Assembly (NCBI RefSeq): GCF_041929205.1
Contig: NZ_JBHFNT010000303.1
DNA: 64,000 nucleotides
DNA from: Floridaenema evergladense BLCC-F167
Lineage (GTDB): Bacteria; Cyanobacteriota; Cyanobacteriia; Cyanobacteriales; Aerosakkonemataceae
Reading direction: 5' to 3' (one strand)
Position numbers and translations under genes: made by a program. Every line of letters starts with the position of its first letter. Positions within the stretch are counted from its first letter, which is position 1. The notes beneath the pieces were generated by a model, which was not told the DNA's origin, searched no databases, and worked only from the letters and a program-made list of their open reading frames with translations. This document shows positions 14,218 to 59,446 of the stretch, piece by piece.

Positions 14218-14259
14218 GTTATTCAAAAATTCAAGTCAAAGTTAGTTAGCACTCAGAAA

Positions 14260-15345: not shown

Positions 15346-15374
15346 AACTACTTTAGTTCGCTGCATTTCTAGTT

Positions 15375-18334: not shown

Positions 18335-18342
18335 GGGTTTTC

Positions 18343-24659: not shown

Positions 24660-25787
24660 TTATTGTGCTGACAGCTTCGATTCAATTTCATTTAACTTGG
24701 AAGCAAGAGCAACTTTCAGTGCTTCCAACTCTTGTTGTTCCATATTATCAAGTGCTATTTCTCGCACTTGCCGAATCATACCTGTAGCACGAGATGGCGT
24801 TTGTTCTTTCGCTTGTTCTTTTAGATAACTGCTAATTTCTGATGAAACTAATGCCCTAGTTTTAGCCACAGATAATTTTTCTTGTAAAATTCGCTTAACT
24901 AACTTGGCTCTAACTTTTTTAGCCTCTGCTTCCTTTATTCCTAACGCTTTGGCATTACAACGCTGCACGGCAATTGCCTGTATTCCCCCCAGTCCTTGAG
25001 TACGAATAGCTTGCTTTAAATCTGCTGCTAATCCCAGCATAGGAAAAATATTGGTATTAATGGAAGCTGGGTTTAATTGCAAAGATAGTAATACGCTAAG
25101 TACGCTCTTTTCTGATGAGTTGAGTTCTAATTCGGCTAAAACTTCTTGTTGTGACTCTGGGCTAACTACTACTATTTCACTAATTTGATTAGTTTTTCCC
25201 TGCCTTTCTAGCCGTCGGACTGCGGTTCTTAAAATGCGAGGAATATCTTGCTCGTTTAAATTACTTGTCTGAGCTATTTCTTTGATTAGCGCTTCTGCCA
25301 TATCTAGCGGATTTAAGTTTTCCCGATGCAAGTTGGCGAGGAGAACGCGACGGTGCAACGCTTCGGGACAAGGGATAATTACTGCTTTTATCGTACCCCA
25401 CTGCAATTGCAAAGCCGCACGCCAACGTCGTTCTCCATCAAATAGTAGATACCGTCCATCTGGTTGTTCTATGAGGATAATTGGTTCCTGCTGTCCATCG
25501 CTAGCTAGGGAAACCATCATCCCGTTAATGCTTTCCGGTGAAAATGTCTGTCTTGGTTGGTCTGGGTTAGGATCTATCTGCTCCACTGATATGTCTATTA
25601 CACCCCCTGATGTGAGAGTTGAACGCAATTCTTGCACTTTGGTTTCAACTTGTTGAGAGTCAACGGAACGCAATTGCTCTATTTCGGCTTGCAGTTCGGT
25701 TATTTTAGTTTCTAAGGCGTGGACTTCTTGAGAGTATTCCGCACCAGAGAACAGATTGGATAGGTCTATTTGTGGTTTTTTACTCAT
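24660..25787 (-). CDS. parB: ParB/Spo0J-family partition protein
   Basis: ParB N-domain with ...EPIILIEQPDGRYLLFDGERRWRAALQL.... Its start overlaps the parA stop (ATGA). Confidence 0.8.
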   Translation of the reverse strand: MSKKPQIDLSNLFSGAEYSQEVHALETKITELQAEIEQLRSVDSQQVETKVQELRSTLTSGGVIDISVEQIDPNPDQPRQTFSPESINGMMVSLASDGQQEPIILIEQPDGRYLLFDGERRWRAALQLQWGTIKAVIIPCPEALHRRVLLANLHRENLNPLDMAEALIKEIAQTSNLNEQDIPRILRTAVRRLERQGKTNQISEIVVVSPESQQEVLAELELNSSEKSVLSVLLSLQLNPASINTNIFPMLGLAADLKQAIRTQGLGGIQAIAVQRCNAKALGIKEAEAKKVRAKLVKRILQEKLSVAKTRALVSSEISSYLKEQAKEQTPSRATGMIRQVREIALDNMEQQELEALKVALASKLNEIESKLSAQ

Positions 25788-26586
25788 GTTTAGTCTTCGA
25801 TTTCTTGAGCAGTTGAGTAATTTTGGTGACTATTGGGGTGAAGTCTTTACAGGCTGGATGTAAAGGACGATAAAGGTGAATTGGTAATCCTAGTGCAGAG
25901 GCATTCTTGAATTCTGATGAGAAACGGATTGGTTGGAAGCAGTGAATGGATAGTTTGGATAGTTGTGGTTCTAGGGAAGCTAAGATGTTGCGGTGAATGG
26001 CGATCGTCTTGTCGTATTGATTAGGTACAAATCCGAGGATCTGCGGTTCTGGTTTGAGTCTCAGGCGACGAGAGTTGTGGTAAAACCATTCTATGAGTTT
26101 GCCCGACCCATCTGCTGATTTTGGTTCTACTTGTATCGGAACTAGTAAATGTGTACAAGCGGAAAGGGCGATTAAAGGTAATGGCCCTAATGTGGCAGGA
26201 CAGTCGAAAATGAGAATGTCTTGAGGTAATGGATAATCTAATAGGCGATCGCCAAGTAAATAAGCACCCCGTTCGTGCAACACTAGTTCGTTAATAGTCT
26301 TTACTAATCCCATTTCTCCTTGTACGGCTACTACGTTTTTTACCTGGTCTTGCCATAAGGGTGTAGTAGGCCAGTTTCCCTGGAAATCGTCTCGCAATAC
26401 AGCGGCAATAGTTTGGTCGGGATGAGGTCGGGGTAATCCTCCCATTAGGGAACAGGAACCTTGTGGGTCTAAGTCAACGAGCGCTACACTGAACCCAGCA
26501 TTGCCTAATAAGTAAGCCAGATGCACGGCTAGGGTAGTTTTCCCACTGCCACCCGCGTTGGAAAGGAGCGCTAGTCTGATTGCCAT
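25780..26586 (-). CDS. parA: ParA/Soj-family partition ATPase
   Basis: Deviant Walker A region LALLSNAGGSGKTTLAVHLA...VDLDPQGS. The signature Lys is replaced (NAGG instead of KGG). Typical ParA length. Confidence 0.75.
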   Translation of the reverse strand: MAIRLALLSNAGGSGKTTLAVHLAYLLGNAGFSVALVDLDPQGSCSLMGGLPRPHPDQTIAAVLRDDFQGNWPTTPLWQDQVKNVVAVQGEMGLVKTINELVLHERGAYLLGDRLLDYPLPQDILIFDCPATLGPLPLIALSACTHLLVPIQVEPKSADGSGKLIEWFYHNSRRLRLKPEPQILGFVPNQYDKTIAIHRNILASLEPQLSKLSIHCFQPIRFSSEFKNASALGLPIHLYRPLHPACKDFTPIVTKITQLLKKSKTKHE

Positions 26587-44343: not shown

Positions 44344-44422
44344 TCATGACAATAATATACGATAAAGGATTCAGGTCTGTTTACTAGTCTACCGAAAACC
44401 TGTCTTCTGGACTGGCTCTACG

Positions 44423-45091: not shown

Positions 45092-46338
45092 ACCAACTTT
45101 TCCACCTGGACACTGCTATCGGGAATCCAAATCAGTTACTCAAACTTCTAGAGTCAGAAAATCCAGCTTTAGAAGTAAGAGAAGTAATAGCAGTTTTTGG
45201 AGCATCTCTTAGCCAACCAAAGTTATCTAAATTGCATCAGTTTCAATTGGGAGATATTGTAACCCAAGGACAACATTATGGAGTAGTAACTGCATTAAAT
45301 GAAACAGACCGACCCATAACAATTACTTGGGATGGAAATAATGATTCTGAACCTGATGTATTTGCTTACACGCTGGACGAAATTCGGTTTTTGGGAATTG
45401 CAATTATTCCTCAATTAGTCCCACTGAAAACAATTGTAGAACTACCAGCAAACATAACTATTCAGATAGCGAATGCTAAATTCGTCAAGTTCCATCAAGC
45501 GAATACTTTCTTAGTTGAAGAAGTTAACGAACACCATTTGATTATCTGCTCTCTTGAAGAACGATATCACTTTCCTAAACAACTGTTTCCGGGAAAGTTT
45601 TTTGCTTGTATTGTAGATATTCCCATCTCGGCTCAAGTACCTAGCAATTTATCTTTAATAGCCTTAAAAACTAAAGTTAAATTGCATTTAGCAATGGCTA
45701 ATGCTGTTAACGATAATTTGGAATGCTTAACGGCAATGAAGAAACAACAATTATTTGAGGAGTTGGTTTCGCAATTAGCAGGTGAACATTATGATACTGA
45801 GGAACTAAACGAAGTTTGGTCGGCAGTATGGGCAGAACAAATTGCTAGTTTAGCTAAGGAACAAGGCTTGTACAACTTTAAACTAGGTGAGCGGGTTTTC
45901 AGACAACGAGAAGGATTAGAAATTTGGGGAACTATTGTGAGGTTAAACATTGAATTAACCCGACCTTTTCAAATTGAGTGGGAGCAGGGAGAAGTGCAGA
46001 ATTATAGCGTGATTGAATTAAAATGTTTAGGGATTACTCCCCTCAAACCTGTTATCAAATTATCGCCTAATGTTGCTTACCAAATTAGCGAAGACGGTCG
46101 TTACTTTAAAGCTTGGATTGGCTTTCGTACCAAAGGGTTAGCGAAAGCTTGGTGGCGGATAATTAAAAAGCAAGTGGGATACCTCAGTTATTGGCGAGAA
46201 TGTTTTAGTGCTGAATTGAAACATACAGATAAGCGTTATGAATGCGTTGTAGAAAAGTTTCGTCAAAAAACTGTGGCTAAACGATTGTCAGCTTTGCAAA
46301 GATTAGCAGAAATTAACTTGGAAGAAATGCCGCGATGA
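45088..46338 (+). CDS. hypothetical protein with two SH3/KOW-like internal repeats
   Basis: 416 aa. It overlaps the E1-like stop (ATGA). The repeats FQLGDIVTQGQHYGVVTAL...ITITWDGNN...YTLDEIRFLGIA and FKLGERVFRQREGLEIWGTIVRL...FQIEWEQGE...SVIELKCLGIT align convincingly. Confidence 0.4.
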   Translation: MNQLFHLDTAIGNPNQLLKLLESENPALEVREVIAVFGASLSQPKLSKLHQFQLGDIVTQGQHYGVVTALNETDRPITITWDGNNDSEPDVFAYTLDEIRFLGIAIIPQLVPLKTIVELPANITIQIANAKFVKFHQANTFLVEEVNEHHLIICSLEERYHFPKQLFPGKFFACIVDIPISAQVPSNLSLIALKTKVKLHLAMANAVNDNLECLTAMKKQQLFEELVSQLAGEHYDTEELNEVWSAVWAEQIASLAKEQGLYNFKLGERVFRQREGLEIWGTIVRLNIELTRPFQIEWEQGEVQNYSVIELKCLGITPLKPVIKLSPNVAYQISEDGRYFKAWIGFRTKGLAKAWWRIIKKQVGYLSYWRECFSAELKHTDKRYECVVEKFRQKTVAKRLSALQRLAEINLEEMPR

Positions 46339-46429
46339 ACGGAAGAAAAAACAGAGTATTATACTAGCTCAAGAGACTCATTAGTGGTAAAACTTAGTAA
46401 GAGTTAACTAGCATAAGTTTCGAGCAAGA

Positions 46430-47122
46430 ATGAACCCAGAAGAACAGCAAGAAATCCTCAAGTTACGTGCTTTAAACGTCACTCCTAAACAAATTGCCCG
46501 TAAATTAGGTTTGAAAGTATCAGAAGTAACTGCATTTATCAAAGAACAAGCCGAACAAACTGCAAGAGCGAAAGCTCAAACTGGTGAATTACCACCCATA
46601 GATAAATGTCTAGCTGATACCAGATGTGCTAAAAGATTACTGTTTGAAGATAGTGATTCTCTTCAGAACGAAATCGGAGGTTTAGGGTTAATTTTAGTAG
46701 CCAGAACTACTGGATATAACCGCTATAGCGTTTGTACTTATTTGCTAGATTACTGGTGTTTGGGTCTAAAAGATACAATCGGACCTAGAGACTTTAACAG
46801 TAATAAGTATCTAGAATTCGTGCAAAATTCATATATGAACTTTCCCCAGGGATACCAAGAGATTACTTTAGAACAAGCACAAGCAATAGTTTTTGGTGCG
46901 ATAGATTATGCCAAATCGTTGGGATTTAGCCCTCATCGAGATTTTGAACAATCACGAACACATCTGGGTGAGTGGAATGGGGAAAGTCAACTAAAATTTG
47001 GTCGGGCTGGTAGACCTTTTTATATTAGCGGCCCTTACGATAATTTCCAACGAGTTATTAGTACTCTGGAAAAGAGTGTAGGAGTGGGAAATTTCGATTA
47101 TTTCGGTGGGTTTGAGGTTTGA
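46430..47122 (+). CDS. hypothetical protein with N-terminal HTH
   Basis: ILKLRALNVTPKQIARKLGLKVSEVTAFI resembles a sigma-region-4/LuxR-like helix-turn-helix. The remaining ~170 aa are unassigned. Confidence 0.35.
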   Translation: MNPEEQQEILKLRALNVTPKQIARKLGLKVSEVTAFIKEQAEQTARAKAQTGELPPIDKCLADTRCAKRLLFEDSDSLQNEIGGLGLILVARTTGYNRYSVCTYLLDYWCLGLKDTIGPRDFNSNKYLEFVQNSYMNFPQGYQEITLEQAQAIVFGAIDYAKSLGFSPHRDFEQSRTHLGEWNGESQLKFGRAGRPFYISGPYDNFQRVISTLEKSVGVGNFDYFGGFEV

Positions 47123-47904
47123 ATGAGCTAATGAGTACATATAACATTTTGAGCCAAACTGAACGTCAACGGGTAAGTGATGGAGAAGTCGTATCTATCT
47201 TGAGTGGTTGCGAGTCTTCATCTCGGAAACTGGTGTTAATATTGCCACAATTGGGAGATTTCGACAGCTTGGAGTATGCTTGGTGGTTGCAACGAGAAGC
47301 CCAACAGCTACAAGCACAAGGTATAGCAATTCGAGCAGTGGGAATTGGTAATCGCACTTCCGGTCAAAAATTTTGTAATTATACGGGATTTCCGGCAGAT
47401 TGTTTATTTGTAGACCCTACTGCCCAACTGCACCAAACACTCAACCTATATTCAGGTTTATCCCTCAAAATGCCTGGTTTATCGCCTGGTGCGAATGCTT
47501 GGCTCAACCTAATGTTAATGTGTGCCGGAATTGGTAGTCCAGGGACTTTGGCAGAAGTGTTTCGCGGATATCGGGGAGACGCAAAAGCACCTCAATTAAT
47601 TGGTGATGAAGAAATTGTACGGGCTGCCCCCCTGCCGCCAATTAAAGGCTCATTCTTCAAATTGGCAGGTGGCAAAGGTTTTCAACGTCCCTTTGAGTTA
47701 GCAACTTTACGATTGCGAAATATGACAGAAGTGCTAACTAATTGGAAAACTTACGTTCCTAACCCTGCTTATCTTACCCAACGCGGCGCAACTTTCTTGT
47801 TTAATCAGCAGGGGGAATTACTTTATGAACATCGCGACTGTGCCATCCTTGGCTTCGCTGCTGATATGAGTAATCCGCTATCTTTTCTCAAGAAAATCAA
47901 CTAA
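47119..47904 (+). CDS. hypothetical protein, possibly thioredoxin-fold (AhpC/TSA_2 / PRXL2-like)
   Basis: It overlaps the previous stop. ...RKLVLILPQLGDFDSLEYAWWL... gives a weak resemblance to peroxiredoxin-like 2 proteins. No CxxC motif is present. Confidence 0.25.
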   Translation: MNELMSTYNILSQTERQRVSDGEVVSILSGCESSSRKLVLILPQLGDFDSLEYAWWLQREAQQLQAQGIAIRAVGIGNRTSGQKFCNYTGFPADCLFVDPTAQLHQTLNLYSGLSLKMPGLSPGANAWLNLMLMCAGIGSPGTLAEVFRGYRGDAKAPQLIGDEEIVRAAPLPPIKGSFFKLAGGKGFQRPFELATLRLRNMTEVLTNWKTYVPNPAYLTQRGATFLFNQQGELLYEHRDCAILGFAADMSNPLSFLKKIN

Positions 47905-47957
47905 AGTAAGCTAGCGCTTAAATCAAAGGTTGAAGAAATAGTAATTGATTAAAATCA

Positions 47958-49379
47958 ATGATACACAATTTACTCAACCTAACCCAAACAAGCGAATCAC
48001 ACCAGTTTACTTTTACCCCACAACAATCAAAAGCTATCCAACAACTAAAAGAATTTTTGATTAGCCCAAACACAATATTTCTGTTATGTGGATATGCCGG
48101 AACCGGAAAATCAACAATCATCATTCAATTCATCAAAGAACTGCTACAACAAGGCAAAAGAATTGCTTTGAGTGCGCCCACCAACAAAGCAGTTAATATC
48201 CTCAAAAAGATGGCAGCACAGCACCAAATTATCGGAGTAGACTTTTTGACAATCCACCAACTGTTAGGATTAGGAATGGTCAGAAAAGAACAAGATAAAG
48301 TGCTAGAGCAAACCAACTCCAGTACCCTATACCTATACGATATCATCATTCTTGACGAATGTTCGATGGTAGGAATAGAACTGTGGAAATGGATAGAAAA
48401 AGGATTCAAGCAAACACTGTTTAACCGGAAAAAACTAATTTTGATGGGAGACCCAGCCCAATTAAATCCCATTGGAGAAAAGCGCAGTCCTAGTTTTAAT
48501 GTCATCAATCGAGCCATCCTGACAGAAGTAGTTAGACAACCAGGAGAAAGCCCAGTACTGGACTTTATTACAAACTGTCGCTCCTTTGTAAAAAGTCAAG
48601 CTAAAACTTCAATTTTCCTACCTCATTCTCAATACAAAAAAGGAGACAAATCGAATGGTGCTTTTAAAGTAACCAGCGAAACAATGTTAGACTATGCTAT
48701 CAAAACTATCAAGCGAAAATTTGCTCTTCATCCCGATTGTTTAAGAATTCTCTGCTGGACAAACAAACGAGTAGATTACTACAATCAAATAATTCGAGAA
48801 CAAGTCTACGGTTCGACTGCACCACGATTCGTTTCTGGCGAACGACTAATTACTAAAAAACCAATAATAGCACCAGATGGTAAGACAGTAATTTTACCAA
48901 CTTCGACTGAATTTACCGTAAAAGAAGTAGAAATCAGTCAACATTATGGCTATCGAGTATGGCTGCTAAAAATTGTTACCGATGAGGGAATAATGCGGCA
49001 GATTTTGGTGCGCCATGAATCCGAATCCAACCGCTACGAAGCAGAACTAGAACAGAAGCTAAAAAGTGCCAAACGAAATGGTTTCTTGTGGCGCAAATAT
49101 TATTGGTTCAAAGATGATTTGTTTGCCGAAGTCGATAATTGTTTTTCTTTAACGGTACATAATTCGCAAGGAAGTACTTTTGATGAAGTAGGAATAGATG
49201 GGGATGACCTTTTCACGCGCTTATTGGTAGGAAATGATGAGAGCAGAAAACAGAAATTAAAGGAGTATCATCGTTTGTGGTATGTGTCAGGTTCCAGATG
49301 TAAAAAAAGACTACTGTTTGTCGCTCCTCAACCTCACAAAGTTGAGCGATTACTACCACGACAAATGACACTTTTTTAA
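47958..49379 (+). CDS. RecD/Dda-like SF1 DNA helicase
   Basis: Walker A LLCGYAGTGKSTII. Motif Ia LSAPTNKAVNIL. Walker B IIILDECSMV. Motif III LILMGDPAQLNPI. Motif V/VI LTVHNSQGSTFDEVG. Confidence 0.75.
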   Translation: MIHNLLNLTQTSESHQFTFTPQQSKAIQQLKEFLISPNTIFLLCGYAGTGKSTIIIQFIKELLQQGKRIALSAPTNKAVNILKKMAAQHQIIGVDFLTIHQLLGLGMVRKEQDKVLEQTNSSTLYLYDIIILDECSMVGIELWKWIEKGFKQTLFNRKKLILMGDPAQLNPIGEKRSPSFNVINRAILTEVVRQPGESPVLDFITNCRSFVKSQAKTSIFLPHSQYKKGDKSNGAFKVTSETMLDYAIKTIKRKFALHPDCLRILCWTNKRVDYYNQIIREQVYGSTAPRFVSGERLITKKPIIAPDGKTVILPTSTEFTVKEVEISQHYGYRVWLLKIVTDEGIMRQILVRHESESNRYEAELEQKLKSAKRNGFLWRKYYWFKDDLFAEVDNCFSLTVHNSQGSTFDEVGIDGDDLFTRLLVGNDESRKQKLKEYHRLWYVSGSRCKKRLLFVAPQPHKVERLLPRQMTLF

Positions 49380-49482
49380 TTAAGGAATTAGGGAGTAGGC
49401 AACTTTGATTCGCTGCTCTCTATTTCCTAATAATAAACACTGCTATCGCAGCGATAAGTCGAACCATTAAATTGCCAGAATT

Positions 49483-50922
49483 ATGACAAGAATTGGACTG
49501 AAAAAATCAGTTAGAGCTAAAACAGTTGACTCTACTGTAACGTCCCCAGAACGTTCAAATACAGATAGTGCTAAAAAACGACAAAAAAGTTCAAAGACTA
49601 CCTCTACTAACCAACCAAAACCAACTGAACTGTCAGAAACTATTTCATCCCAAACCGAACAAACCTCTGAAATATCAGCTCTACCAATACCAACACCAGT
49701 AGAAGCGATTTGCAATTCTAGAGAATTCAACGATTACGTACAGGTACTTAAAGCGATCGTTCCTAACAATAATAACCATCCGATATTGTGCAACATTCTG
49801 ATTGAAGCCGAACCGAAATCCCAACAATTACAATTGACTGCATACAACCTAGAATTTGGAATGCAAGTTAGCTTTGATGCCACAGTTAATCAACCAGGTT
49901 CTCTGACATTACCTGTTACCATACTAGCTGATATATTAGGAAAATTTCCTCAAGGTCGGCTGACAATAAACAGTGAAGTTACTATACCCAAAGGTAACAA
50001 AGCTGCAAACACACCACCATCCATAACTGCTACCTTATCAATGCCAAGAAGTCAGCACGTTATTCGAGGATTAATCGCCAGCGAATTTCCGACAATTCCT
50101 CCAGTAAACCACAAGTTGTTTTCTCTCCCAGCTAGCACGCTAATAGGGGTACTTAAAGGTAGCTTGTTTGCTGTCAGTTTGAATGAAGCGAAACGAATTA
50201 TAACAGGTGTTAACTTTAAACTTAGTTATGATGCAGAACGTGGAATTAATCGCCTGAGAATTTGGACAACAGACGGACATCGAATTGCCATGATTTTGGG
50301 ATTAAGTGAGAGCAACAACGAGGCTAATCATTGGCTCGAAGAAGCAGTAGAATTTACTGTACCTGCCAAAGTATTGAAGCTACTAGAACGCAATTTAAAC
50401 CCGACAGAGCGGGTTGCTATCTACTACGATGGTTCAGCAGAGCAGGCAGCAAAGTATGTAGCTTTTTGTTGTCAAAATTGGCAAATGACGACTCAGTTGT
50501 TAGAAGGAAATTATCCACCATGTAACCAAATTGTTGACCCTTACAGAAGTGAGTTGAAGTATCAAATAATAGTAGAGCGATTAGCTTTAGTTAGGGCATT
50601 AGAAAGATTAGCAACTCACAGCGATAAATCCCACGTTACGGTAGGGTTAGAATTTGATTCCCAACAGCAACAAATTCGAGCTTCAATTACTAATGCAATT
50701 AGTTCTGGTCAGGAAATAATTGCTGCTAAAATTGATGGTGATAAGTTGCGAGTAAAGTTAGATATTCGTTATTTAATCGATACGGTGAAAGCAGTTACAA
50801 CTTCAGATTTGCGAATGCTGTTAGCTTCATCCCTGGCACCAGTATTGATTGTACCTTTTGGTACGCCAATTTCGGGAGAAGCGGCAATCGAATCCGAATA
50901 TGCAATAGCACCCCAAGAGTAA
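49483..50922 (+). CDS. DNA polymerase III beta sliding-clamp (DnaN)-like protein with ~110-aa low-complexity N-terminal extension
   Basis: After an S/T/Q-rich N-terminus the protein follows the DnaN layout (NHPILCNILIEAEPKSQQLQLTAYNLEFGMQVSFDATVNQPGSLTLPVTILADILGKFP...). The three-domain length is ~370 aa. It is divergent from the ~385-aa housekeeping DnaN. Confidence 0.6.
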   Translation: MTRIGLKKSVRAKTVDSTVTSPERSNTDSAKKRQKSSKTTSTNQPKPTELSETISSQTEQTSEISALPIPTPVEAICNSREFNDYVQVLKAIVPNNNNHPILCNILIEAEPKSQQLQLTAYNLEFGMQVSFDATVNQPGSLTLPVTILADILGKFPQGRLTINSEVTIPKGNKAANTPPSITATLSMPRSQHVIRGLIASEFPTIPPVNHKLFSLPASTLIGVLKGSLFAVSLNEAKRIITGVNFKLSYDAERGINRLRIWTTDGHRIAMILGLSESNNEANHWLEEAVEFTVPAKVLKLLERNLNPTERVAIYYDGSAEQAAKYVAFCCQNWQMTTQLLEGNYPPCNQIVDPYRSELKYQIIVERLALVRALERLATHSDKSHVTVGLEFDSQQQQIRASITNAISSGQEIIAAKIDGDKLRVKLDIRYLIDTVKAVTTSDLRMLLASSLAPVLIVPFGTPISGEAAIESEYAIAPQE

Positions 50923-51019
50923 GTGAAAAAGGGAGAAGGAGAAGAAAGTTATGAGTTATGAGATTCAACTCAAAACTCATAACTTTACCTGCTCTCCCTA
51001 ATTACTCTTAAATCAATCA

Positions 51020-51955
51020 TTATTCTCTTCTGGGCAGATTGAACTGAACGATAAATTGCTGAAAATCAGATAAGGATTCAACGGTAACAGCTTCCCTATG
51101 CAGCGTTTTCAGTAAGTCAGAATCTAGTACATCAGTAATGCTATCGACCAACTCTTTTGGTACTTCTCCAAACCGAATTTTCAGAACTTCAATGATATAC
51201 TCATACCCAATTAAACGCTCAGGTGTGGTAGCATAACGCATTTTATTTTCCTCCTCAAAACGTTTGATTTCTTGAGTAAACCCACTTTCCAAATCTCCTG
51301 GCAATGTCATCATCCAGTCAATTAATCGAAATAATTCACGGATTTCAGCCCGATTATAACCTCGTTCAAACAGACTCTTGACAATGCTTAATTTCCACTC
51401 TAACCGTTCTTGAGGTTTTCCACTTGTCGCCTGCGTTTTCAAGTGCGCCATAACGAGAGGAGCGAAAGGGTTGATACTTGCTTCTAAAGTTTGCCAGTCC
51501 TGTTGATAGTCTAGCAACTTAACCATCGAAAACCTTAACAAAACCCTAGTTCCCCAGATTTCATAACTGTACTCTTGGGGTCGCCAAGATTTTTCTGAGT
51601 CGGCTAAAATTGCTAAATTCGCCACTTTTTTCCGATAAATACCAAAAATGCGACTGTTGTAAACATACATTCTTTCCGCAAAAGTTGATTGGTATTGACT
51701 TTGCACTTCTAAATGAATCAACACCCAAGTTTCTTGACCATTAGTTAACCACACTTTAACTAATTTATCAGCTTCTCGTTGTCCTAATTCGTCATCCCGC
51801 ATCACTTGTCTGAGTTCGTTATCCAGAAATTCATGGGGGATTTTCCAGTCTATTTGTTCGTAGATATCCGGGAAAAAGAAAGCAATAAAAGATTTAAAGT
51901 AGACAGCGATAGCTTCTTTCCAAGGATTATCATAATCATCCCGTTGTTTAGACAT
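51020..51955 (-). CDS. Rpn-family / PD-(D/E)xK recombination-promoting nuclease (putative transposase, DUF4351-type)
   Basis: DYDNPWKEAIAVYFKSFIAFFFPDIYEQIDWKIPHEFLDNELRQ...WVLIHLEVQSQYQSTFAERMYVYNSRI matches the abundant cyanobacterial family pattern (D.D...K.L...F...FFP....ID.s..EFLD.EL ... IHIE.QSQ...F..RM..Y). Confidence 0.6.
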   Translation of the reverse strand: MSKQRDDYDNPWKEAIAVYFKSFIAFFFPDIYEQIDWKIPHEFLDNELRQVMRDDELGQREADKLVKVWLTNGQETWVLIHLEVQSQYQSTFAERMYVYNSRIFGIYRKKVANLAILADSEKSWRPQEYSYEIWGTRVLLRFSMVKLLDYQQDWQTLEASINPFAPLVMAHLKTQATSGKPQERLEWKLSIVKSLFERGYNRAEIRELFRLIDWMMTLPGDLESGFTQEIKRFEEENKMRYATTPERLIGYEYIIEVLKIRFGEVPKELVDSITDVLDSDLLKTLHREAVTVESLSDFQQFIVQFNLPRRE

Positions 51956-52055
51956 ATTCCTCGATTTTATTAGTCCAATTAAAAGTATACATTAGACAAA
52001 ACTTTCTTTTCCCCTAGCGGGGATTCTCTGGGAACTTTTGTGAAAAACTGGAATA

Positions 52056-53411
52056 ATGCACCAACCATTATCACTCAAATATCGACCAAAAAACCTGGCA
52101 AGTTTAGTAGGTCAAGAACCCATCAAAATCGCCCTAACAAATGCAGTAACTTCTGCTAAAATTGCCCCAGCTTATTTGTTTACCGGGCCAAGAGGAACAG
52201 GTAAAACCTCCACAGCACGCATTCTAGCCAAATCGTTAAATTGTCTCAATTCGTCAGTTCCGACAGCAAATCCTTGCCAAAAATGTGTATCATGTAAAGC
52301 AATTGATGCAGGCAATAGTTTGGATGTAAGTGAAATTGATGCAGCTAGTCATAATGGGGTAGAAGATGCTAGAGAATTAATCGAACGCAGCAATTTTGCA
52401 CCAGTAATGAGTCGGTATCGGATATTCGTTTTAGATGAATGCCACCAACTTAGTAGTAGTGCTCAAAATGCGCTGCTAAAATGTATCGAAGAACCACCAT
52501 CTCATGTGGTATTTATTCTCTGTACGACTGAAGCACACAAGGTATTACCAACTATTAGTTCGCGCTGTCAAACGTTTAACTTTAAAGCACTCTCTATGGA
52601 GGCAATTGTCGAACAATTGTCACGAGTAGCTGTTCAAGAATCAATCGCCATTACAGAGGAAGCAAATAAGCTAATTGCACGACATTCAGAGGGTGGATTA
52701 AGAGATGCTTTGCAATTGCTTTCTCAATTATCGCTGATGGGAGAACAAATTACACCAGAGCGTGTAGTAGAAGTGTCTGGTGGGATTCGTTCTCACGATT
52801 TAGCTACGATTGTCAAAGCTATCTGTGCTGGTGACGTACTGACAATATTACAATCAGCAAGAACTCTAATTGATAGTGGTAAAACACCGAAATTGATTTT
52901 GAGTAGCCTGTTGGCAGTTTACCGCGATTTACTGATTGTTAAAAGCGTACCCAAAAGTGAGAATGTAGTCGCCGGAACTCTGAATTATTCGCAATTGCGA
53001 CAAGTTGCTAACAAGCTAGATTTTCCTAGCATAGATGCAGCTTTGATGCAGTTACAAAAATCAGAAAGTCAGTTGAGAGTAACGACTAATGGTGCTACTT
53101 GGTTAGAAGTATGCTTGCTCAATTTGATTTACAATAATCAAGAGCAGCATAATCGAAACGGAAATGGTAAAGCAGGAGAATTGAGTTCCGTTTGGATGAA
53201 GGTTATTGAAGCTACAAAACCAGCTAATCGCAGCTTACTTTCTCGTGCCAAATTAATCAGTTTAAATGAGAGTAACTGTGTACTAGCTGTTCCACCATCT
53301 GATGTAAAGAAGTTTCAAAGCAACGTTGCATTAGTAGAACGAATTGTTAGTCGAGTATTGGGTTATCCGGTTACGATTAAGCTCGAACAAAGGAAGGAAC
53401 TGTCAGTATGA
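52056..53411 (+). CDS. dnaX: DNA polymerase III gamma/tau subunit (DnaX), short gamma-like form
   Basis: YLFTGPRGTGKTSTARILAKSLNC. Zinc module CQKCVSCKAI. Walker B/SRC region RIFVLDECHQLSSSAQNALLKCIEEPPSHVVFILCTTEAHKVLPTISSRCQTFNF. At 451 aa it lacks the tau C-terminal domains. Confidence 0.85.
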   Translation: MHQPLSLKYRPKNLASLVGQEPIKIALTNAVTSAKIAPAYLFTGPRGTGKTSTARILAKSLNCLNSSVPTANPCQKCVSCKAIDAGNSLDVSEIDAASHNGVEDARELIERSNFAPVMSRYRIFVLDECHQLSSSAQNALLKCIEEPPSHVVFILCTTEAHKVLPTISSRCQTFNFKALSMEAIVEQLSRVAVQESIAITEEANKLIARHSEGGLRDALQLLSQLSLMGEQITPERVVEVSGGIRSHDLATIVKAICAGDVLTILQSARTLIDSGKTPKLILSSLLAVYRDLLIVKSVPKSENVVAGTLNYSQLRQVANKLDFPSIDAALMQLQKSESQLRVTTNGATWLEVCLLNLIYNNQEQHNRNGNGKAGELSSVWMKVIEATKPANRSLLSRAKLISLNESNCVLAVPPSDVKKFQSNVALVERIVSRVLGYPVTIKLEQRKELSV

Positions 53412-54361
53412 TAACGCTATTAGTTGGCAACGATACTGAAGCAATTAAGCAAGAATTGGCAACATTAAAAGCACACACGCATCCCCGGTGGCGAGACTTT
53501 AATGTACATCAATTTAGTGCCGAACAATTAAGTGCTGCCATGATGAGTGCTTTTTCAATTCCTTTTGGTGAAGGTGGCAAACTAATTATTGTAGAAAACT
53601 GTGATTTCAAACAGTTTGGTGAAACTGGATTAGAGATGTTGCAACCTTTATCCATGTTACCCAAAACTACCCATTTGGTATTTACGGCTAATTCGATTGA
53701 TAAGCGACTGAAGGTAACTAAACATTTGTTATCGTTAGGTAAGCTCAAAGAGTTGGCTTTGATTCCACCTTGGCGTACTGACTTAATCGAACAAGCGCTC
53801 GGCAATACTGCTAAACAAATGCAGTTAACTATTGCTCGTGATGCTGTAAACTATTTAGCTCAAGCTATTGGTAATGATACTACCAGAATGGTGAAAGAAT
53901 TGTCAAAGTTAGCTGTCTATGCCGCAGGTGCAAAAATTACCAAAGAGCAGGCTATTGCGTTAATTCCCATCACTACAAGTAACAGTTTACAATTAGCTCA
54001 AGCATTACTAAAACGTGAAATTGTTGTCATTGTTCAAATAGTACGCGAATTACTATCTCGTGCTGAATTTCCTTTAGTAATTGTGGCTACTCTCATTACT
54101 CAGTTTAAGACTTGGTTGTGGGTAAAAGCAGCATTAGTAGCTAAACGCTCTGACTCAGAAATTGCTACTTTGTGCGGCTTAGGCAATCCCAAACGAATGT
54201 ATTTCTTACGGCAAGAGATAAATGAGGTTTCGACAAATTACTTGTCAAAAGTACTTTCGATGCTATTTGAGTTGGAAGTTGAACTAAAAAGTGGAGAAAA
54301 GGCTGATTCCATACTGCCAGCATTGTTGAGAATTGTACAGGTACCCTCGCATACTCAGTAG
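53408..54361 (+). CDS. DNA polymerase III delta subunit (HolA)-like
   Basis: Overlaps the dnaX stop (ATGA). 317 aa and helical. Assigned from its position as a clamp-loader partner and its size. Motif-level support is weak. Confidence 0.45.
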   Translation: MITLLVGNDTEAIKQELATLKAHTHPRWRDFNVHQFSAEQLSAAMMSAFSIPFGEGGKLIIVENCDFKQFGETGLEMLQPLSMLPKTTHLVFTANSIDKRLKVTKHLLSLGKLKELALIPPWRTDLIEQALGNTAKQMQLTIARDAVNYLAQAIGNDTTRMVKELSKLAVYAAGAKITKEQAIALIPITTSNSLQLAQALLKREIVVIVQIVRELLSRAEFPLVIVATLITQFKTWLWVKAALVAKRSDSEIATLCGLGNPKRMYFLRQEINEVSTNYLSKVLSMLFELEVELKSGEKADSILPALLRIVQVPSHTQ

Positions 54362-54376
54362 ACGAAAAGCGAAAAG

Positions 54377-54494
54377 GTAGGGGTTAGGGGGTAGGGGGTA
54401 GGTGTTAGGGAATCTTTAGGTGATAGGGCTCAGGTGGTAGGGGATGGGGAAAAAGACTCTTCCCTAACACCCAACCCCTAACCCCTACTCCCCG
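54377..54494. repeat. G-rich heptamer repeats (GGGGTAG/GGGTTAG) arranged as long imperfect inverted repeat (hairpin)
   Basis: Left arm GGTAGGGGTTAGGGGGTAGGGGGTAGGTGTTAGGG. Right arm CCCTAACACCCAACCCCTAACCCCTACTCCCC. It lies directly after the holA-like stop. STRR-like heptamers are typical of filamentous cyanobacteria. Confidence 0.55.
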
Positions 54495-54647
54495 CACCCA
54501 AGATTTACTCATACTACATAGTCATGCTACAATAATGGGGCAAGTAGTAATACATGAACTGGCTATGGTTTGGGTTCTTTTTGCCTAACTGGTGCGCCAA
54601 CCGCTGGATTGCGCGTATACCGCACAGAAATGCGTGACTACTCAGTA

Positions 54648-54720
54648 GTTTGATTAGCTCAGTGGTAGAGCATCCGAACGCATCGGTAGGACGTAGGTTC
54701 AATCCCTACATCAAACACCA
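54648..54720 (+). tRNA. tRNA-like gene (probable degenerate/pseudo-tRNA; anticodon arm does not fold canonically)
   Basis: Perfect 7-bp acceptor (GTTTGAT/ATCAAAC). D-arm GCTCAGTGGTAGAGC. T-arm GTAGGTTCAATCCCTAC. Encoded ACCA 3' end. The anticodon region ATCCGAACGCATCGGTA gives only 3-4 bp of stem and no U33. Confidence 0.45.
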
Positions 54721-54796
54721 GGAAGTTAGCTCAATGGGTAGAGCGATCGACTGAAAATTCGATTTGTCGCAGGTTCAAATCCTGTACTTTCAACCA
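54721..54796 (+). tRNA. tRNA-like gene, anticodon loop CTGAAAAT (GAA, Phe-like) but 8-nt loop and imperfect acceptor
   Basis: D-arm GCTCAATGGGTAGAGC. Anticodon stem ATCGA/TCGAT with 8-nt loop CTGAAAAT. T-arm GCAGGTTCAAATCCTGT. The acceptor GGAAGTT/ACTTTCA pairs at only 5 of 7 positions. The 3' end is ACCA. Confidence 0.45.
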
Positions 54797-55175
54797 ACCC
54801 TGTCCGGGTCAAAAGACACTACTTTTTGGAAGTAGCTTACCTCAACTCTCTAACAAACTCTGCAATGTAGGTGTGTACTAGGGATAGTAACAGTAAAGAA
54901 GCCAGTGCAATTGTTTTCTCTCTAACTTGAGTATGTCCTTCATTGTCTTTATCCAGTTTTCCTAGATACAACAAACTGAACGGCATATCTGAGGATTGCG
55001 ATCTTTTTCTGAGTACTCTACTCACGAAGTAGCAATCATCTTAATCCAGTCCGAGAAGAAGCAACTCGCCCGCAACCGAACTGCAAACACCTACATTTGC
55101 AGATTTGACAATCTGTGTAGTATCTATGTAGCATAAAGTTAATAGTAAAAACCTAAGTCGTCTGAGCAATTTTCT

Positions 55176-56693
55176 ATGTGGAAAACATTTTATATTAAAC
55201 CTAACGAAATTGGAATTTTGTATCACCGTAGTGATTTCCAAAAAATTTTGCAGCCGGGGACTTACACTTATTTTGGTTGGCACTGGCAAGTCAAAACCTA
55301 CGATCTCAATCAACCAGAGGTAAAGATTGAGAACTTGGAGCTATTACTGCGAGATCGTAGTGCGGAGTTAGAACCATACTTATTAGTAGTAAGAACTGCA
55401 TTCAATCAAGCTGCTTTAGTACGAGTAGGACAAAATTGGCTCAGTGTTTTACCCAATCGATTGCGAGCTTTTTGGCGCGGTTTTATTGAAGTAGAATCTT
55501 ATCTTTTCAATTTGAATGAAAGTTTGGAATTACCAGCCGAGTTTAGAGAACAAATACGTAAGATTGCCTTGGATGGAATCCAGAAGTTCTTAATTTCCGA
55601 GTCGGAAATTGGTTTACTTTACGTGCAGAAAAACTTCGTGCGATCGCTCGAACCAGGCGAATATGCTTTTTGGACTGTCGAACGAGTTGTTTTAGTTCAC
55701 AATCTCAGTCGAATTATACCCAATCCAGACTTTCCCTTGCCAGATGTATTGATCGAGCAACATCCTGATTTCGTAGCAGCTTACTGCGAAACGGTGCAAT
55801 TACAAAATCATCAGGTAGCCATTGTTCGCTATCAAGGTAAAGTTATTTCTATTCTCCCACCCACTATTCGGAAACTATTTTGGCGAGGTGTGGAAGTAGA
55901 GGTAATTGATATCAGCAATGATGCTAAATTACCAACTAATTTAGTGGCAGAATTAGTCTTGAATGCGCCAGAGAGAGTTCGCAATTTTTTGCATATTCAA
56001 GAAGTGCCAGCACAGCACGTTGGATTACTTTACATCAATCAAGAGTTTCAAACCCAACTTCAGCCAGGAATACACGCTTGGTGGATATTTGGACGTTCTT
56101 GGCAGACGGAAGCTATTGATTTGAGATTGCAAACGATCGAAGTATCCGGTCAAGATATTCTCTCTAAAGATAAAGTACCTTTGCGGTTGAATTTAACTGC
56201 TGGGTTTCGCATTCTAGATCCATTAAAAGCCAAAAACGGCTTATCCGATATTGCTGGTTTCTTATACAAGGAACTACAATTTGGTTTGCGGGGAGCAGTG
56301 GGCGAACGTACTCTAGATGCTTTACTAGAAAATAAAGGAGCAGTCGATAAAAGTGTAGCTGAATATATCGAGCAAAAAACTGCCGACTATGGAATTGAAA
56401 TTAATTCCGTTGGGGTCAAAGATATTATTTTACCTGGCGAGATTAAGACAATTTTGAGTAAGGTGGTAGAGGCAGAGAAATCTGCTCAAGCTAACGTAGT
56501 ACGTCGTCGGGAAGAAACTGCTGCTACTCGCAGTATGTTGAATACGGCGAAAGTGATGGAAGATAATCCGGTGGCTTTACGTTTGAAAGAGTTAGAAGTG
56601 TTAGAAAGAATTGCTGAGAAGATCGATCGCATTCAAGTTAACGGTAGCTTGGATAGCATTTTGACCGACTTAATTCGGCTCAACCGGGAATAA
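55176..56693 (+). CDS. SPFH/band-7 domain protein with triplicated N-terminal segment
   Basis: The C-terminal ~250 aa form an SPFH core (...DILSKDKVPLRLNLTAGFRILDPLKA...GIEINSVGVKDIILPGEIKTILSKVVEAEKSAQANVVRRRE...). Three N-terminal repeats have the form E.G.LY....F...LQPG.Y.FW. Confidence 0.7.
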   Translation: MWKTFYIKPNEIGILYHRSDFQKILQPGTYTYFGWHWQVKTYDLNQPEVKIENLELLLRDRSAELEPYLLVVRTAFNQAALVRVGQNWLSVLPNRLRAFWRGFIEVESYLFNLNESLELPAEFREQIRKIALDGIQKFLISESEIGLLYVQKNFVRSLEPGEYAFWTVERVVLVHNLSRIIPNPDFPLPDVLIEQHPDFVAAYCETVQLQNHQVAIVRYQGKVISILPPTIRKLFWRGVEVEVIDISNDAKLPTNLVAELVLNAPERVRNFLHIQEVPAQHVGLLYINQEFQTQLQPGIHAWWIFGRSWQTEAIDLRLQTIEVSGQDILSKDKVPLRLNLTAGFRILDPLKAKNGLSDIAGFLYKELQFGLRGAVGERTLDALLENKGAVDKSVAEYIEQKTADYGIEINSVGVKDIILPGEIKTILSKVVEAEKSAQANVVRRREETAATRSMLNTAKVMEDNPVALRLKELEVLERIAEKIDRIQVNGSLDSILTDLIRLNRE

Positions 56694-56788
56694 AATAATA
56701 GTGTGATCGCCGGAGAATTAATCGAGCGATCGCATACACATTGCTGCCATTTGTACTGCTTAATTTTTATTTTTAGCCGCCCCTATCG

Positions 56789-59446
56789 GTGGCGGTAAAT
56801 AGAAGTAATTGTAGTCTACAAATGCAACCAGATTATCTGAAATTACTGGCTCAATTTGAGCAGGAATTCTCTCCTATCTCTCGCCATCAATCAGTAACAG
56901 AAAACCAATTGGTTGAGGCTAACAATCTCCTAGAATTACTAGGAGAAGAGATCATTTGGCATGAAACAACACCTGCAACCAACCCACTCAATAAAAACCT
57001 GCCATCTGATTTACCAAAAGAACTGAAACAAGCTTTACAACAGCAAGGCATAAAACAGCTTTATTCTCACCAAATCAAAGCTCTCAAAGCAGTGCGTCAA
57101 GGTCGAGATATCATCTTATCAACTACAACTAGTTCTGGCAAATCTTTGAGCGCATATCTTCCGATTTTATCAGGAGTAATGCAGCATGATTATACCGCCT
57201 TAGCTTTTTATGGATTAAGAGCCTTAACATCAGACCAAGGTCAAAAAGTTGCTAACTTAATCAAATCTATTCCCCAGTCTACACAACCTCGATTAGCGAT
57301 GCTAACCGGAGATACTAGCAAAGAGGAAAGAGAAAGATTATTAGCAACTAATCCTCAAATTATTGGAGCTACGCCGGAATTAATTCACTTTGCACTTAGA
57401 GGAGTTCATTGGAGTCAACCTTGGCAGCAATTCTTGAGCAAACTGCGTTACGTGCTAATTGATGAAGCGCACACTTTCAATGGTGTTTATGGAGCAAATA
57501 TGGCAGCTTTAATTCGGCGGTTAAAGTTAGCAGTTGATGGTAATGGTGGTAATTCTAATCAACTACAATTCATCTTTTTGAGTGCTACAATTGGTAATCC
57601 AGTAGAATTGGCTAGGAGATTATCTAGTAGAAATCGTCACCGTAATTCAACTAAACCAGATAGATTGGTTTGGATTAATTCCAGTGGAGCAGCTACACCT
57701 TCTCGACAGTTAATTGTCACTAAACCTAGCCATAATGCTAACCCAGATGCAGCGAGAATTATCTTGTTTTTATTGCAATCTGGACAAAGCGGGATTTGTT
57801 TTTGTAATGGCAGACAAGCTATTAAGAATTTGTGGTCAACTTTACGACAAGAGGCGATTCAACAAGGTTATAGTAGCATTGAAAAACAAGTAGCTATATT
57901 CTATAGCAGTTTAACTAGCCAGCGTCGTACCGAAATAATTCAACAATTAGAACTAGGCCAGATTCGATGTATTATTAGTACCAGTTCGTTGGAAGCTGGA
58001 ATTGACCTACCACAACTGGATTATGTAATTATTAGAGGTTGGCCTGGAAGTTTGCAAGCATTTCGACAAAGATTAGGAAGAGCAGGGAGAGTAAAAGCTG
58101 GTTTAGCTGTTTTTATTCCGATTGCTCAATTACCTTTGGATAATTATTTTGCTACACATCCTCAGTTGTTATTAGGAGCTCCGTCAGAACAGGTTAGCTT
58201 TAGTACCAATTACCCGATAGACTTAGCCAAACATTTGATGTGTGCCGCAGTAGAAACGGGAATTCCTGTGACTAAACTCAAGTACTATTTTGGTAAATTG
58301 GCGCTGACTATTGCCACAGCTTTGATGGAACAGGGAGTCATGCACAAAAGTCGCGGTCGATTATGGGCGAAAGGATTTCCCCATAAAGATGTTAACTTTC
58401 GGGGTGGAATAAACAGCAGCACAGTTCAATTGGTAGATGCGGAATTTGGAGAAGAAGTTGAAAGTTTAAGTGCTGAAATTGCTATCCATGAAGTGTTCCC
58501 TGGTGCAATTTACCGAACGCAAAATTCGGACGGACAATTAGTAACTTATCGCTCGGAAACTCTGGAATTGCAAATGGGAAAAGCCCTATTGCAGTTAATT
58601 ACAGAAACTCCGTTGTTTACGACTGCTGTCAATCGTGTTGATACCTGTATCCATCAAGAATTGAGTACGCCTAAAATTGTTCCTTTGCTTGTGTCAACAG
58701 CAGAAAGTAATGGTTCAACTCAAGTTCCGTTATCGATACAATTGAGTTTAGGTTGGGGTGAAATTAGTCAACAAGTGACTGGGTATCAATTACTAACCAG
58801 GTCATACAAGTTAACTTGTTTGCAGAAAAAGTGCGTAAATTATAAGGAAGGATTGAACGAGCGTACTCATTGTCCAGCTTGTGGTAAACGGTTGCGGAAA
58901 GCGGAGTTAACAACGGTACTTAATGAAGTTGAGTTTGAGCAACCTTATGCTATCAAGTTTAGTACTCCTGTTGTCCAGATTAGTGTTAGCGAATCAGTTA
59001 ATCGATACTGGCAAGAAATTGTAGTTCGGACTCGCACTCAACTGTTGCAAACCAAGCAACCAATTCCGACAAATTATCAACAACTATGGGAATATCCAGC
59101 GCAGTTTTTAGTAATTCATAGTTTTGGGCATCAGATTTTAGCAGCTTTGCCATTGGTGGTATTGGCTGGGATGAATGATGTGAGTTTTCGGGTAGAAAAA
59201 AGAGGAATTGCAGATTATGTTGGTTTATTTTATGACAGGGTTGAAGGTGGTTCCGGTAGTGCGGAGGCAATTTTTAAGCAGTTACCAAAACTTGCTAAAG
59301 TAGGAGGTGAATTAGCTCGGAATTGTGAATGCGAATCCGGTTGTCCTAAGTGTTTGATTCAACCTGGTTGTCCTGATGGTAATAAAGGTTTGCTCAAAGA
59401 ATTGGGACTGCTTTTATGTGATGCGCTTTCATTAATTGAAGCATAA
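56789..59446 (+). CDS. DEAD/DEAH-box helicase with C-terminal DUF1998 zinc-ribbon domain (MrfA/YprA-like; DrmA/DrmB-like architecture)
   Basis: Motif I TTTSSGKSL. Motif II LIDEAHTFNG. Motif III LSATIGNP. Motif VI-like QRLGRAGR. C-terminal Cys cluster CECESGCPKCLIQPGCPDGN. Confidence 0.7.
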   Translation: MAVNRSNCSLQMQPDYLKLLAQFEQEFSPISRHQSVTENQLVEANNLLELLGEEIIWHETTPATNPLNKNLPSDLPKELKQALQQQGIKQLYSHQIKALKAVRQGRDIILSTTTSSGKSLSAYLPILSGVMQHDYTALAFYGLRALTSDQGQKVANLIKSIPQSTQPRLAMLTGDTSKEERERLLATNPQIIGATPELIHFALRGVHWSQPWQQFLSKLRYVLIDEAHTFNGVYGANMAALIRRLKLAVDGNGGNSNQLQFIFLSATIGNPVELARRLSSRNRHRNSTKPDRLVWINSSGAATPSRQLIVTKPSHNANPDAARIILFLLQSGQSGICFCNGRQAIKNLWSTLRQEAIQQGYSSIEKQVAIFYSSLTSQRRTEIIQQLELGQIRCIISTSSLEAGIDLPQLDYVIIRGWPGSLQAFRQRLGRAGRVKAGLAVFIPIAQLPLDNYFATHPQLLLGAPSEQVSFSTNYPIDLAKHLMCAAVETGIPVTKLKYYFGKLALTIATALMEQGVMHKSRGRLWAKGFPHKDVNFRGGINSSTVQLVDAEFGEEVESLSAEIAIHEVFPGAIYRTQNSDGQLVTYRSETLELQMGKALLQLITETPLFTTAVNRVDTCIHQELSTPKIVPLLVSTAESNGSTQVPLSIQLSLGWGEISQQVTGYQLLTRSYKLTCLQKKCVNYKEGLNERTHCPACGKRLRKAELTTVLNEVEFEQPYAIKFSTPVVQISVSESVNRYWQEIVVRTRTQLLQTKQPIPTNYQQLWEYPAQFLVIHSFGHQILAALPLVVLAGMNDVSFRVEKRGIADYVGLFYDRVEGGSGSAEAIFKQLPKLAKVGGELARNCECESGCPKCLIQPGCPDGNKGLLKELGLLLCDALSLIEA

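Follow-up and report, generated by a model that had tools for sequence, protein, structure and literature searches.

Bacterial sliding clamps and the DnaX-type complexes that load them are well studied, and versions encoded by mobile elements are established in phages. Large cyanobacterial plasmids are present in multiple copies beside polyploid chromosomes, and their replication is poorly known; to our knowledge, only their Rep proteins (CyRepA and CyRepX) have been studied to date. We analyzed a 64,000-nucleotide stretch of DNA (hereafter, the window) that covers nearly all of a 65,185-bp contig (NZ_JBHFNT010000303.1) of Floridanema evergladense BLCC-F167, a member of a genus placed in Aerosakkonematales, and focused on a module that encodes a helicase, a sliding clamp (DnaN), a short clamp-loader ATPase (DnaX), and the loader subunit delta (HolA). 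We estimate at roughly 0.7 the probability that a large cyanobacterial plasmid of the conjugative type has its replication-accessory core in this region, where it would encode its own clamp, a loader consisting of short DnaX and delta, and a 5'-3' helicase of the Dda-like type. Rather than being a rarity, the module is a recurrent part of plasmid backbones.

The content of the window was surveyed with Pfam, NCBIfam, and PHROGs profiles in 47 open reading frames (ORFs) of at least 150 amino acids (aa) (Table 1). By sequence comparison, clamp, DnaX, and delta are all intact, and none of the ATPase, arginine-finger, or zinc residues is missing from DnaX. The three Pfam clamp domains, a TIGR00663 score above the cutoff, and an AlphaFold2 (AF2) monomer model in which residues 74-479 fold as a beta clamp (Foldseek TMt ~0.9 to solved clamps) bear out the beta-clamp assignment made in a preliminary description of this locus, although the identity to canonical clamps, including cyanobacterial and picocyanobacterial-looking ones, is just 27-29%. 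That description also assigned to the clamp an N-terminal extension of ~110 aa. An S/T-rich tail is indeed present, but it spans only ~72 aa, given that clamp homology begins at residue 74-76 and that the predicted local distance difference test (pLDDT) score is below 50 at residues 1-66. The tail is basic (36% S+T, 12 K/R, net charge +5) and is found in every close relative of the clamp, with a conserved MxK..L start. In an alignment at ~20-25% identity, the cleft equivalents of Escherichia coli T172, G174, H175, P242, Y323, and P363 are retained, and three replacements appear subfamily-wide, namely, M362 to A, M364 to Q/L, and V170 to W (E. coli numbering). The last cleft strand reads EY(I/V)xAP(Q/L)x, compared to (F/Y)LVMPV(R/Q) in canonical clamps.

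The window DnaX has 100% identity to a protein that bears the name of F. evergladense. Its alignment to E. coli gamma showed intact Walker A (GPRGTGKTS), four zinc cysteines, Walker B (DECH), sensor 1, SRC, and sensor 2 motifs, in agreement with the initial reading of a 451-aa DnaX with zinc module and SRC motif in place. The accompanying claim that the protein has no tau C-terminus had to be abandoned, and the protein is not gamma-like: it ends in a KH domain, modeled by AlphaFold with pLDDT ~90 in the C-terminal region, that is predicted to adopt the fold of DnaA domain I and tau domain V. The type-II KH fold is common to domains of this type (PMC8216460). In chromosomal cyanobacterial DnaX, the KH domain is internal (~residues 470-570), with a ~100-aa linker on its N-terminal side and ~110-130 aa without a Pfam match on its C-terminal side. 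Because the plasmid protein retains the KH domain but is missing both the linker and the terminal tail of the chromosomal form, we denote it “mini-tau,” an architecture in which domains I-III are joined almost directly to KH, with no terminal tail. Against the cyanobacterial full-length equivalog PRK14948, the window protein scores 533 bits, under the cutoff of 593. In a 914-aa relative of the short DnaX proteins (P0361), the match is split at query residue ~125 and the C-terminal KH domain is kept; this protein looks like an intein-containing plasmid-type DnaX.

The dnaX stop and the holA start overlap by 4 nt (ATGA), and the two genes are predicted to be translationally coupled. The preliminary description of the overlapping gene as HolA-like stood up to profile searches (TIGR01128 and both Pfam delta domains), and the protein matches delta of Bacillus subtilis (3zh9, E = 4e-11). 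Promoter and terminator scanning of positions 46300-56800 gave counts not above those in shuffled sequence and hence no operon evidence. The spacer between dnaN and dnaX (window positions 50923-52055) appears to be an insertion hotspot, and its occupant here a cargo gene outside the module. The previously reported opposite-strand gene is present at this position, whereas its identity as an Rpn-type nuclease is weak (Table 1). The equivalent spacer contains a Uma2 gene in pANACY.01 (L003) and GNAT and TetR genes in pNPM2 (L006) and is empty in loci L002 and L005. The spacer cargo genes are small, mutually unrelated, and located on the opposite or the same strand.

The first gene of the module encodes a superfamily 1 (SF1) helicase that matches the PHROG “Dda-like helicase” family (phrog_325) with 282 bits over residues 4-463. 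Along with the Pfam matches and the legible SF1 motifs (GYAGTGKST, DECSM, GDPAQL, VHNSQGST, and YVSGSR), this confirms its previous assignment to the Dda/RecD type. It is neither RecD nor RecD2 proper because it misses both equivalog cutoffs (83.6 vs 310 for RecD and 88.9 vs 500 for RecD2). Its C-terminal QMTLF was considered as a clamp-binding motif and dropped, this ending being absent from the four homologs read. A second helicase, encoded 3' of the module, combines the features that define the MrfA/Hrq1 helicases, namely, a DEAH core, the Hrq1 winged helix, and the MZB zinc domain. On related plasmids, a homologous DEAD/DEAH helicase is usually found a few kilobases 3' of the module (2-8 kb away in loci L002, L003, L005, and L006).

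One alternative is that the dnaN, dnaX, and holA in the window are simply the organism's housekeeping genes, located on a chromosome fragment or a chromid. We scanned genomes with a 793-aa Microcoleus DnaX as the seed and obtained 80 cyanobacterial dnaX loci, several of these on complete chromosomes. The DnaX proteins in this set are 610-817 aa long, except for three shorter ORFs of 425-539 aa, and no dnaN or holA homolog was found within 6 kb of dnaX at any of the 80 housekeeping loci. The phylogenetic check that had been proposed for these genes was run for DnaX: in a neighbor-joining tree of the AAA+ region, built without bootstrap and indicative only, the short forms, including that from the window, group in a clade of their own, apart from the long cyanobacterial forms. 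Several sets can occur in one strain, on three plasmids in Oscillatoria nigro-viridis PCC 7112 and on two in Anabaena cylindrica PCC 7122, and Chlorogloeopsis sp. ULAP02 has a long as well as a short dnaX. An identical HolA (P0241) and a second short DnaX, 54% identical to that in the window (P0071), are named for Floridanema aerugineum.

The housekeeping interpretation could draw on two facts: the canonical copies of this genome were not directly demonstrated, and some short dnaX genes are located on contigs of great length, such as the 1.5-Mb contig that carries P0040. Nevertheless, we find it hardly credible, given the low identity of DnaN to canonical clamps, cyanobacterial ones included; the DnaX score under the cyanobacterial equivalog cutoff and the missing C-terminal ~110-130 aa; the failure of housekeeping dnaX to cluster with dnaN or holA at any of the 80 loci; the strain with three sets on three plasmids; the ParAB, Rep, and type IV secretion system (T4SS) genes on the contig; and the two proteins named for F. 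aerugineum. Taken together, the HolA profile matches, the separate clade of short DnaX, the 80 unclustered loci, the multi-copy strains, and the long and short forms in ULAP02 uphold the original proposal that an element with a plasmid-type backbone encodes a clamp and loader distinct from the housekeeping ones. Judging from these comparisons, the clamp and loader belong to a conserved, plasmid-restricted family of paralogs separate from the long housekeeping DnaX.

A nucleotide search of PLSDB identified the same gene order on plasmids of Oscillatoria nigro-viridis, Anabaena cylindrica, Planktothrix, and Gloeocapsa; near-identical DNA was not found in this database, the best matches being the O. 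nigro-viridis plasmids at ~69-76% identity. In a protein search, the module DnaX was detected on at least 39 cyanobacterial PLSDB plasmids of 74-554 kb, 29 of which are predicted to be conjugative. HolA is encoded on 42 plasmids, including all 39 DnaX carriers, the MrfA-like helicase on 34, and the Dda-like helicase on 18 cyanobacterial plasmids, where it is syntenic and located 5' of dnaN, with the order helicase-dnaN-dnaX-holA kept in loci L001-L003 and L005. The best 120 DnaX matches in a large protein collection are 439-512 aa long, with the exception of one partial entry, and are cyanobacterial where a name is given; the same holds for the named best HolA matches. Beyond cyanobacteria, dnaX and dnaN are also present on Bacillus, Clostridium, and Lysinibacillus plasmids and in 112 Pseudomonas plasmid records. 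The preliminary view that such genes are unusual for a plasmid was, accordingly, overstated, in light of the at least 39 cyanobacterial plasmids and the Bacillus, Clostridium, and Pseudomonas megaplasmids. RefSeq already labels the genes on the carrier plasmids dnaN, dnaX, and holA; thus, the window copy belongs to an annotated but uncharacterized plasmid family, and a system of this kind is itself known.

The cyanobacterial carriers include two plasmid types. Type A, to which the window conforms, lacks delta' and encodes the Dda-like helicase; on window-like plasmids, a search with delta' matches dnaX alone. Type B, exemplified by pCC7120beta (locus L004), has the arrangement dnaN-dnaX-PolB-holA-delta'-ssb, together with a primase-polymerase (prim-pol) gene, and is without the Dda-like helicase. 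On pCC7120beta, the 605-aa gene at 14067-15884 that is annotated as “3'-5' exonuclease” encodes a family-B polymerase (PolB) with exonuclease and polymerase domains, and the “AAA family ATPase” 3' of holA (17835-18710) is delta' (PF13177, 120 bits). Because the type B sister module adds PolB, delta', a protein that binds single-stranded DNA (SSB), and prim-pol, the common function of both types is likely DNA synthesis on the plasmid, and this is the main argument for the proposed role in replication.

The same comparison bears on the possibility that the module serves in DNA damage tolerance or repair on the plasmid, with the clamp and loader acting alongside the MrfA-like helicase and RarA, mainly to fill gaps or restart forks. 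The MrfA/Hrq1-like MZB helicase is the most constant neighbor of the module, a RarA-fusion protein is encoded on the same plasmid, and DnaX is without the tail and the long linker that housekeeping DnaX has, all of which would suit such a function. However, the additions on the sister plasmids are replisome-like, the module is embedded among Rep, Par, and T4SS backbone genes, and the window ORF scans revealed neither a lesion-bypass polymerase nor an MrfB-type exonuclease, although no search was aimed at MrfB. We therefore consider a primary role in repair unlikely.

The backbone context raises a further alternative, establishment after conjugation, whereby the recipient would produce the clamp, loader, and helicase at an early stage, and these would convert the incoming single strand to duplex without host factors. 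The predicted conjugative nature of 29 of the 39 carriers is compatible with this scenario, as is the location of the module next to large transfer-region genes in Gloeocapsa pGLO7428.02 and of the ThiF-dnaX-polymerase III subunit array beside T4SS genes on a Lysinibacillus plasmid. Yet the remaining 10 of the 39 are typed as non-mobilizable, and the T4SS association may reflect a shared backbone only, so that a dedicated establishment function seems quite improbable.

Matches to defense and phage families were also weighed. The module helicase partly matches the candidate defense system PDC-M16A, the MrfA-like helicase matches the helicase cores of BrxH, SngC, and DruE, every module protein has a PHROG counterpart, and a Mu Gam-like gene is present at 2570-3208; these facts could point to an anti-phage defense or counter-defense system or to the replisome of a phage-plasmid. 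But the PADLOC matches of the helicases span generic cores only, DnaN and HolA have no PADLOC match, and DnaX has a single marginal one, to a generic AAA+ family (mad8, E = 9e-4); on these PADLOC results, a defense role of the clamp-loader trio was rejected. The 47 ORFs include no capsid, terminase, or tail genes, and phage DnaX proteins are all less than 40% identical to that in the window, compared to 50-62% for plasmid DnaX, so the phage and phage-plasmid readings were rejected as well. As a whole, this alternative is very improbable.

Under the favored interpretation, as a replication-accessory core, the DUF3854 Rep encoded in the window would prime the plasmid origin, and DnaX and delta would then place the plasmid clamp on the primed DNA of the plasmid. 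Either the host delta' or a fourth DnaX subunit could complete the loader; the clamp loader of phage T4 has a 4:1 composition and is a plausible analog for a loader devoid of delta'. The clamp might be used by a host polymerase, either the alpha subunit of DNA polymerase III (Pol III) or Pol I, and the C-terminal KH domain of DnaX could serve as a tether for, e.g., a polymerase or a helicase. Owing to its disordered, basic tail and the changes in the cleft strand (M362A and M364Q/L, E. coli numbering), the clamp may be biased to plasmid-specific partners, and the Dda-like and MrfA-like helicases would clear or restart forks. A more far-reaching version of this scheme is that the module is a self-contained orthogonal clamp system, in which a T4-like DnaX4-delta complex free of delta' loads only the tail-bearing clamp of the plasmid, whereas the cleft, tail, and KH domain recruit the host polymerase and the plasmid helicase or Rep to plasmid DNA. 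We put this version forward only tentatively, considering it possible but rather doubtful.

Several observations weigh against a replication-accessory role. Neither delta' (a second PF13177 protein) nor a DNA polymerase was found among the 47 window ORFs, and because the window encodes neither of these, the loader stoichiometry and the polymerase partner proposed above are guesses. A direct link between the helicase and the clamp is unsupported, QMTLF apparently not being conserved in the homologs, and the MrfA-like and RarA companions suit repair equally with replication. The 80 loci of the dnaX scan include none from Floridanema, so the housekeeping copies of this genome were not retrieved. 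Finally, no paper describing the module or the family was found in the literature searched, which left out many subscription journals.

Table 1. Features of the F. evergladense window, with positions counted from its first nucleotide
Feature	Position	Strand	Basis
RarA/MgsA-fusion AAA+ protein, 739 aa	22366..24585	-	MgsA_C, AAA_assoc_2; NF009881 1254 bits vs cutoff 651
parB-parA partition genes	24660..26586	-	ParB_N; AAA_31/CbiA/ParA
Rep candidate, 1055 aa	29137..32304	-	DUF3854 Toprim-like N-terminus and primase-related body; PF12965 65 bits
Conserved protein of unknown function, 416 aa	45088..46338	+	44-45% identical homologs directly 5' of the helicase in loci L001 and L002
Dda/RecD-type SF1B helicase, 473 aa, first module gene	47958..49379	+	Pfam AAA_19, AAA_30, PIF1, UvrD_C_2
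Divergent beta clamp DnaN, 479 aa	49483..50922	+	PF00712, PF02767, PF02768; TIGR00663 181.9 bits vs cutoff 137.65
Clamp N-terminal tail, ~72 aa, predicted disordered, basic, S/T-rich	49483..49698	+	pLDDT <50 for residues 1-66
Cargo gene, 311 aa, weakly Rpn/YhgA-like nuclease/transposase	51020..51955	-	PF04754 E 0.006; phrog_3300 transposase E 7.5e-4
Short DnaX, 451 aa	52056..53411	+	TIGR02397 398.7 bits vs cutoff 250; PF13177, PF22608, PF12169 (domain III), PF23007
Type-II KH domain at DnaX C-terminus, residues ~371-445	53166..53390	+	PF23007 match at residues 373-444
HolA delta subunit, 317 aa	53408..54361	+	TIGR01128 181.3 bits vs cutoff 80; PF06144, PF21694
MrfA/Hrq1-like DEAH helicase, module companion	56789..59446	+	DEAD PF00270, Helicase_C PF00271, WHD_HRQ1 PF22982, MZB PF09369

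ParAB, genes for type IV secretion, and a Rep of the CyRepA type (DUF3854) make the contig plasmid-like; the transfer genes detected by the profile scan are a TrbI-like gene and a weakly matching VirB4/TraC-like gene. The N-terminal 270 aa of the Rep candidate share 50-60% identity with DUF3854/P4-primase proteins that small cyanobacterial plasmids encode, and its body resembles proteins annotated as primase/polymerase. It had been described as a TOPRIM/superfamily 3 (SF3) primase-helicase 20 kb upstream of the module; the Toprim-like part was recovered as DUF3854, but the Pfam, NCBIfam, and PHROGs profiles revealed no helicase domain, SF3 included. DUF3854 is also the Toprim-like domain found in CyRepA1 and CyRepA2, cyanobacterial initiators that were defined by experiment (PMC10079941). 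These initiators combine an N-terminal DUF3854 with a C-terminal DEXDc helicase domain, whereas, by profiles, the Rep candidate matches the DUF3854 part only. Its C-terminus (...QGNLFDLQS) resembles a clamp-binding motif. RarA/MgsA, represented here by a fusion protein, is a clamp-loader-related AAA+ protein that works at stalled forks in model bacteria. The 416-aa protein encoded 5' of the module helicase matched nothing in Pfam, NCBIfam, PADLOC, or PHROGs.

A PRTRC cassette (41802-45091), consisting of E2-like PRTRC_B, JAB-like PRTRC_A, and ThiF, adjoins the module. One of the two TnpB elements identified in the window ORF scan (IS200/605 OrfB, 43054-44343, minus strand) sits between the JAB and ThiF genes. 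As a consequence that we attribute to this insertion, ~50-60 residues are missing from the N-terminus of the window ThiF, so that the match to the Pfam ThiF profile lacks its beginning, and the protein is probably inactive. The extreme C-terminus of the same TnpB is QLSLF, the exact consensus beta-clamp-binding pentapeptide. A ThiF/PRTRC cassette also adjoins the clamp-loader genes in pCC7120beta (L004, 1-18710), and on a Lysinibacillus plasmid (L087, 11151-14835), ThiF overlaps dnaX, with a gene for a Pol III subunit coming next and T4SS genes nearby. E1-like enzymes may be linked to plasmid clamp loaders across phyla. Beside parA, the window encodes a protein with a major-vault-protein repeat and shoulder domain (181 bits; 27269-28465, minus strand), flanked by an apparently truncated 195-aa fragment of a PEP-utilizing enzyme (26668-27255, minus strand). 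The Mu Gam-like gene at 2570-3208 encodes, on the plus strand, a putative Mu Gam-like/Sipho_Gp157 DNA-end protection protein.

The conserved plasmid clamp and loader imply that these plasmids bring along part of the elongation machinery besides the initiator. Features of this family that merit recording are the breadth of module conservation, the mini-tau architecture, the tail-bearing clamp, and the dichotomy between gene sets without delta' and those with PolB and delta'. If the clamp-loader pair is plasmid-specific, it would contribute to an explanation of host range and plasmid compatibility and could be used for better cyanobacterial vectors, whereas mini-tau and the accompanying gene set lacking delta' could provide biochemists with a natural minimal bacterial clamp loader. 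Should the system be orthogonal to that of the host, several large plasmids and a polyploid chromosome could replicate together without competing for one clamp pool.

Compared to the E. coli Pol III clamp and loader (gamma/tau3-delta-delta'), the window proteins belong to the same families and have the same folds, sharing the ATPase, SRC, and zinc motifs, the three-domain clamp, the two-domain delta, and a KH domain similar to tau domain V. The differences are that the window genes are plasmid-borne and clustered, with no delta' and with a DnaX that lacks the linker and the C-terminal tail, and that the clamp, at 27-29% identity to canonical clamps, has an N-terminal tail that is basic and disordered, as well as A and Q/L in place of M362 and M364, respectively. 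The resemblance to phage T4 (gp45, gp44/62, and Dda) is in organization: in both cases, a mobile element supplies the clamp itself, together with an SF1B helicase of the Dda type and a loader that has no counterpart of delta'. Unlike those of T4, however, the window proteins are of the bacterial type (beta dimer family and DnaX/HolA), no polymerase is encoded, and the context is that of a plasmid. At the level of annotation, the dnaX and dnaN genes of Firmicute and Pseudomonas megaplasmids set a precedent for Pol III accessory subunits encoded by plasmids, but they come from other lineages, with DnaX 35-40% and DnaN ~24% identical to the window proteins. The RefSeq-annotated cluster of the pCC7120beta type in Nostocales differs in the addition of a family-B polymerase, delta', SSB, and prim-pol, in the lack of the Dda-like helicase, and in its clamp, where a similar basic tail is located at the C-terminus instead of the N-terminus; the identity to the window proteins is 46% for DnaX, 33% for HolA, and 24% for DnaN. 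Like the window, it combines paralogous DnaN, DnaX, and HolA with PRTRC genes, an MrfA-like helicase, and ParAB on a conjugative-type plasmid.

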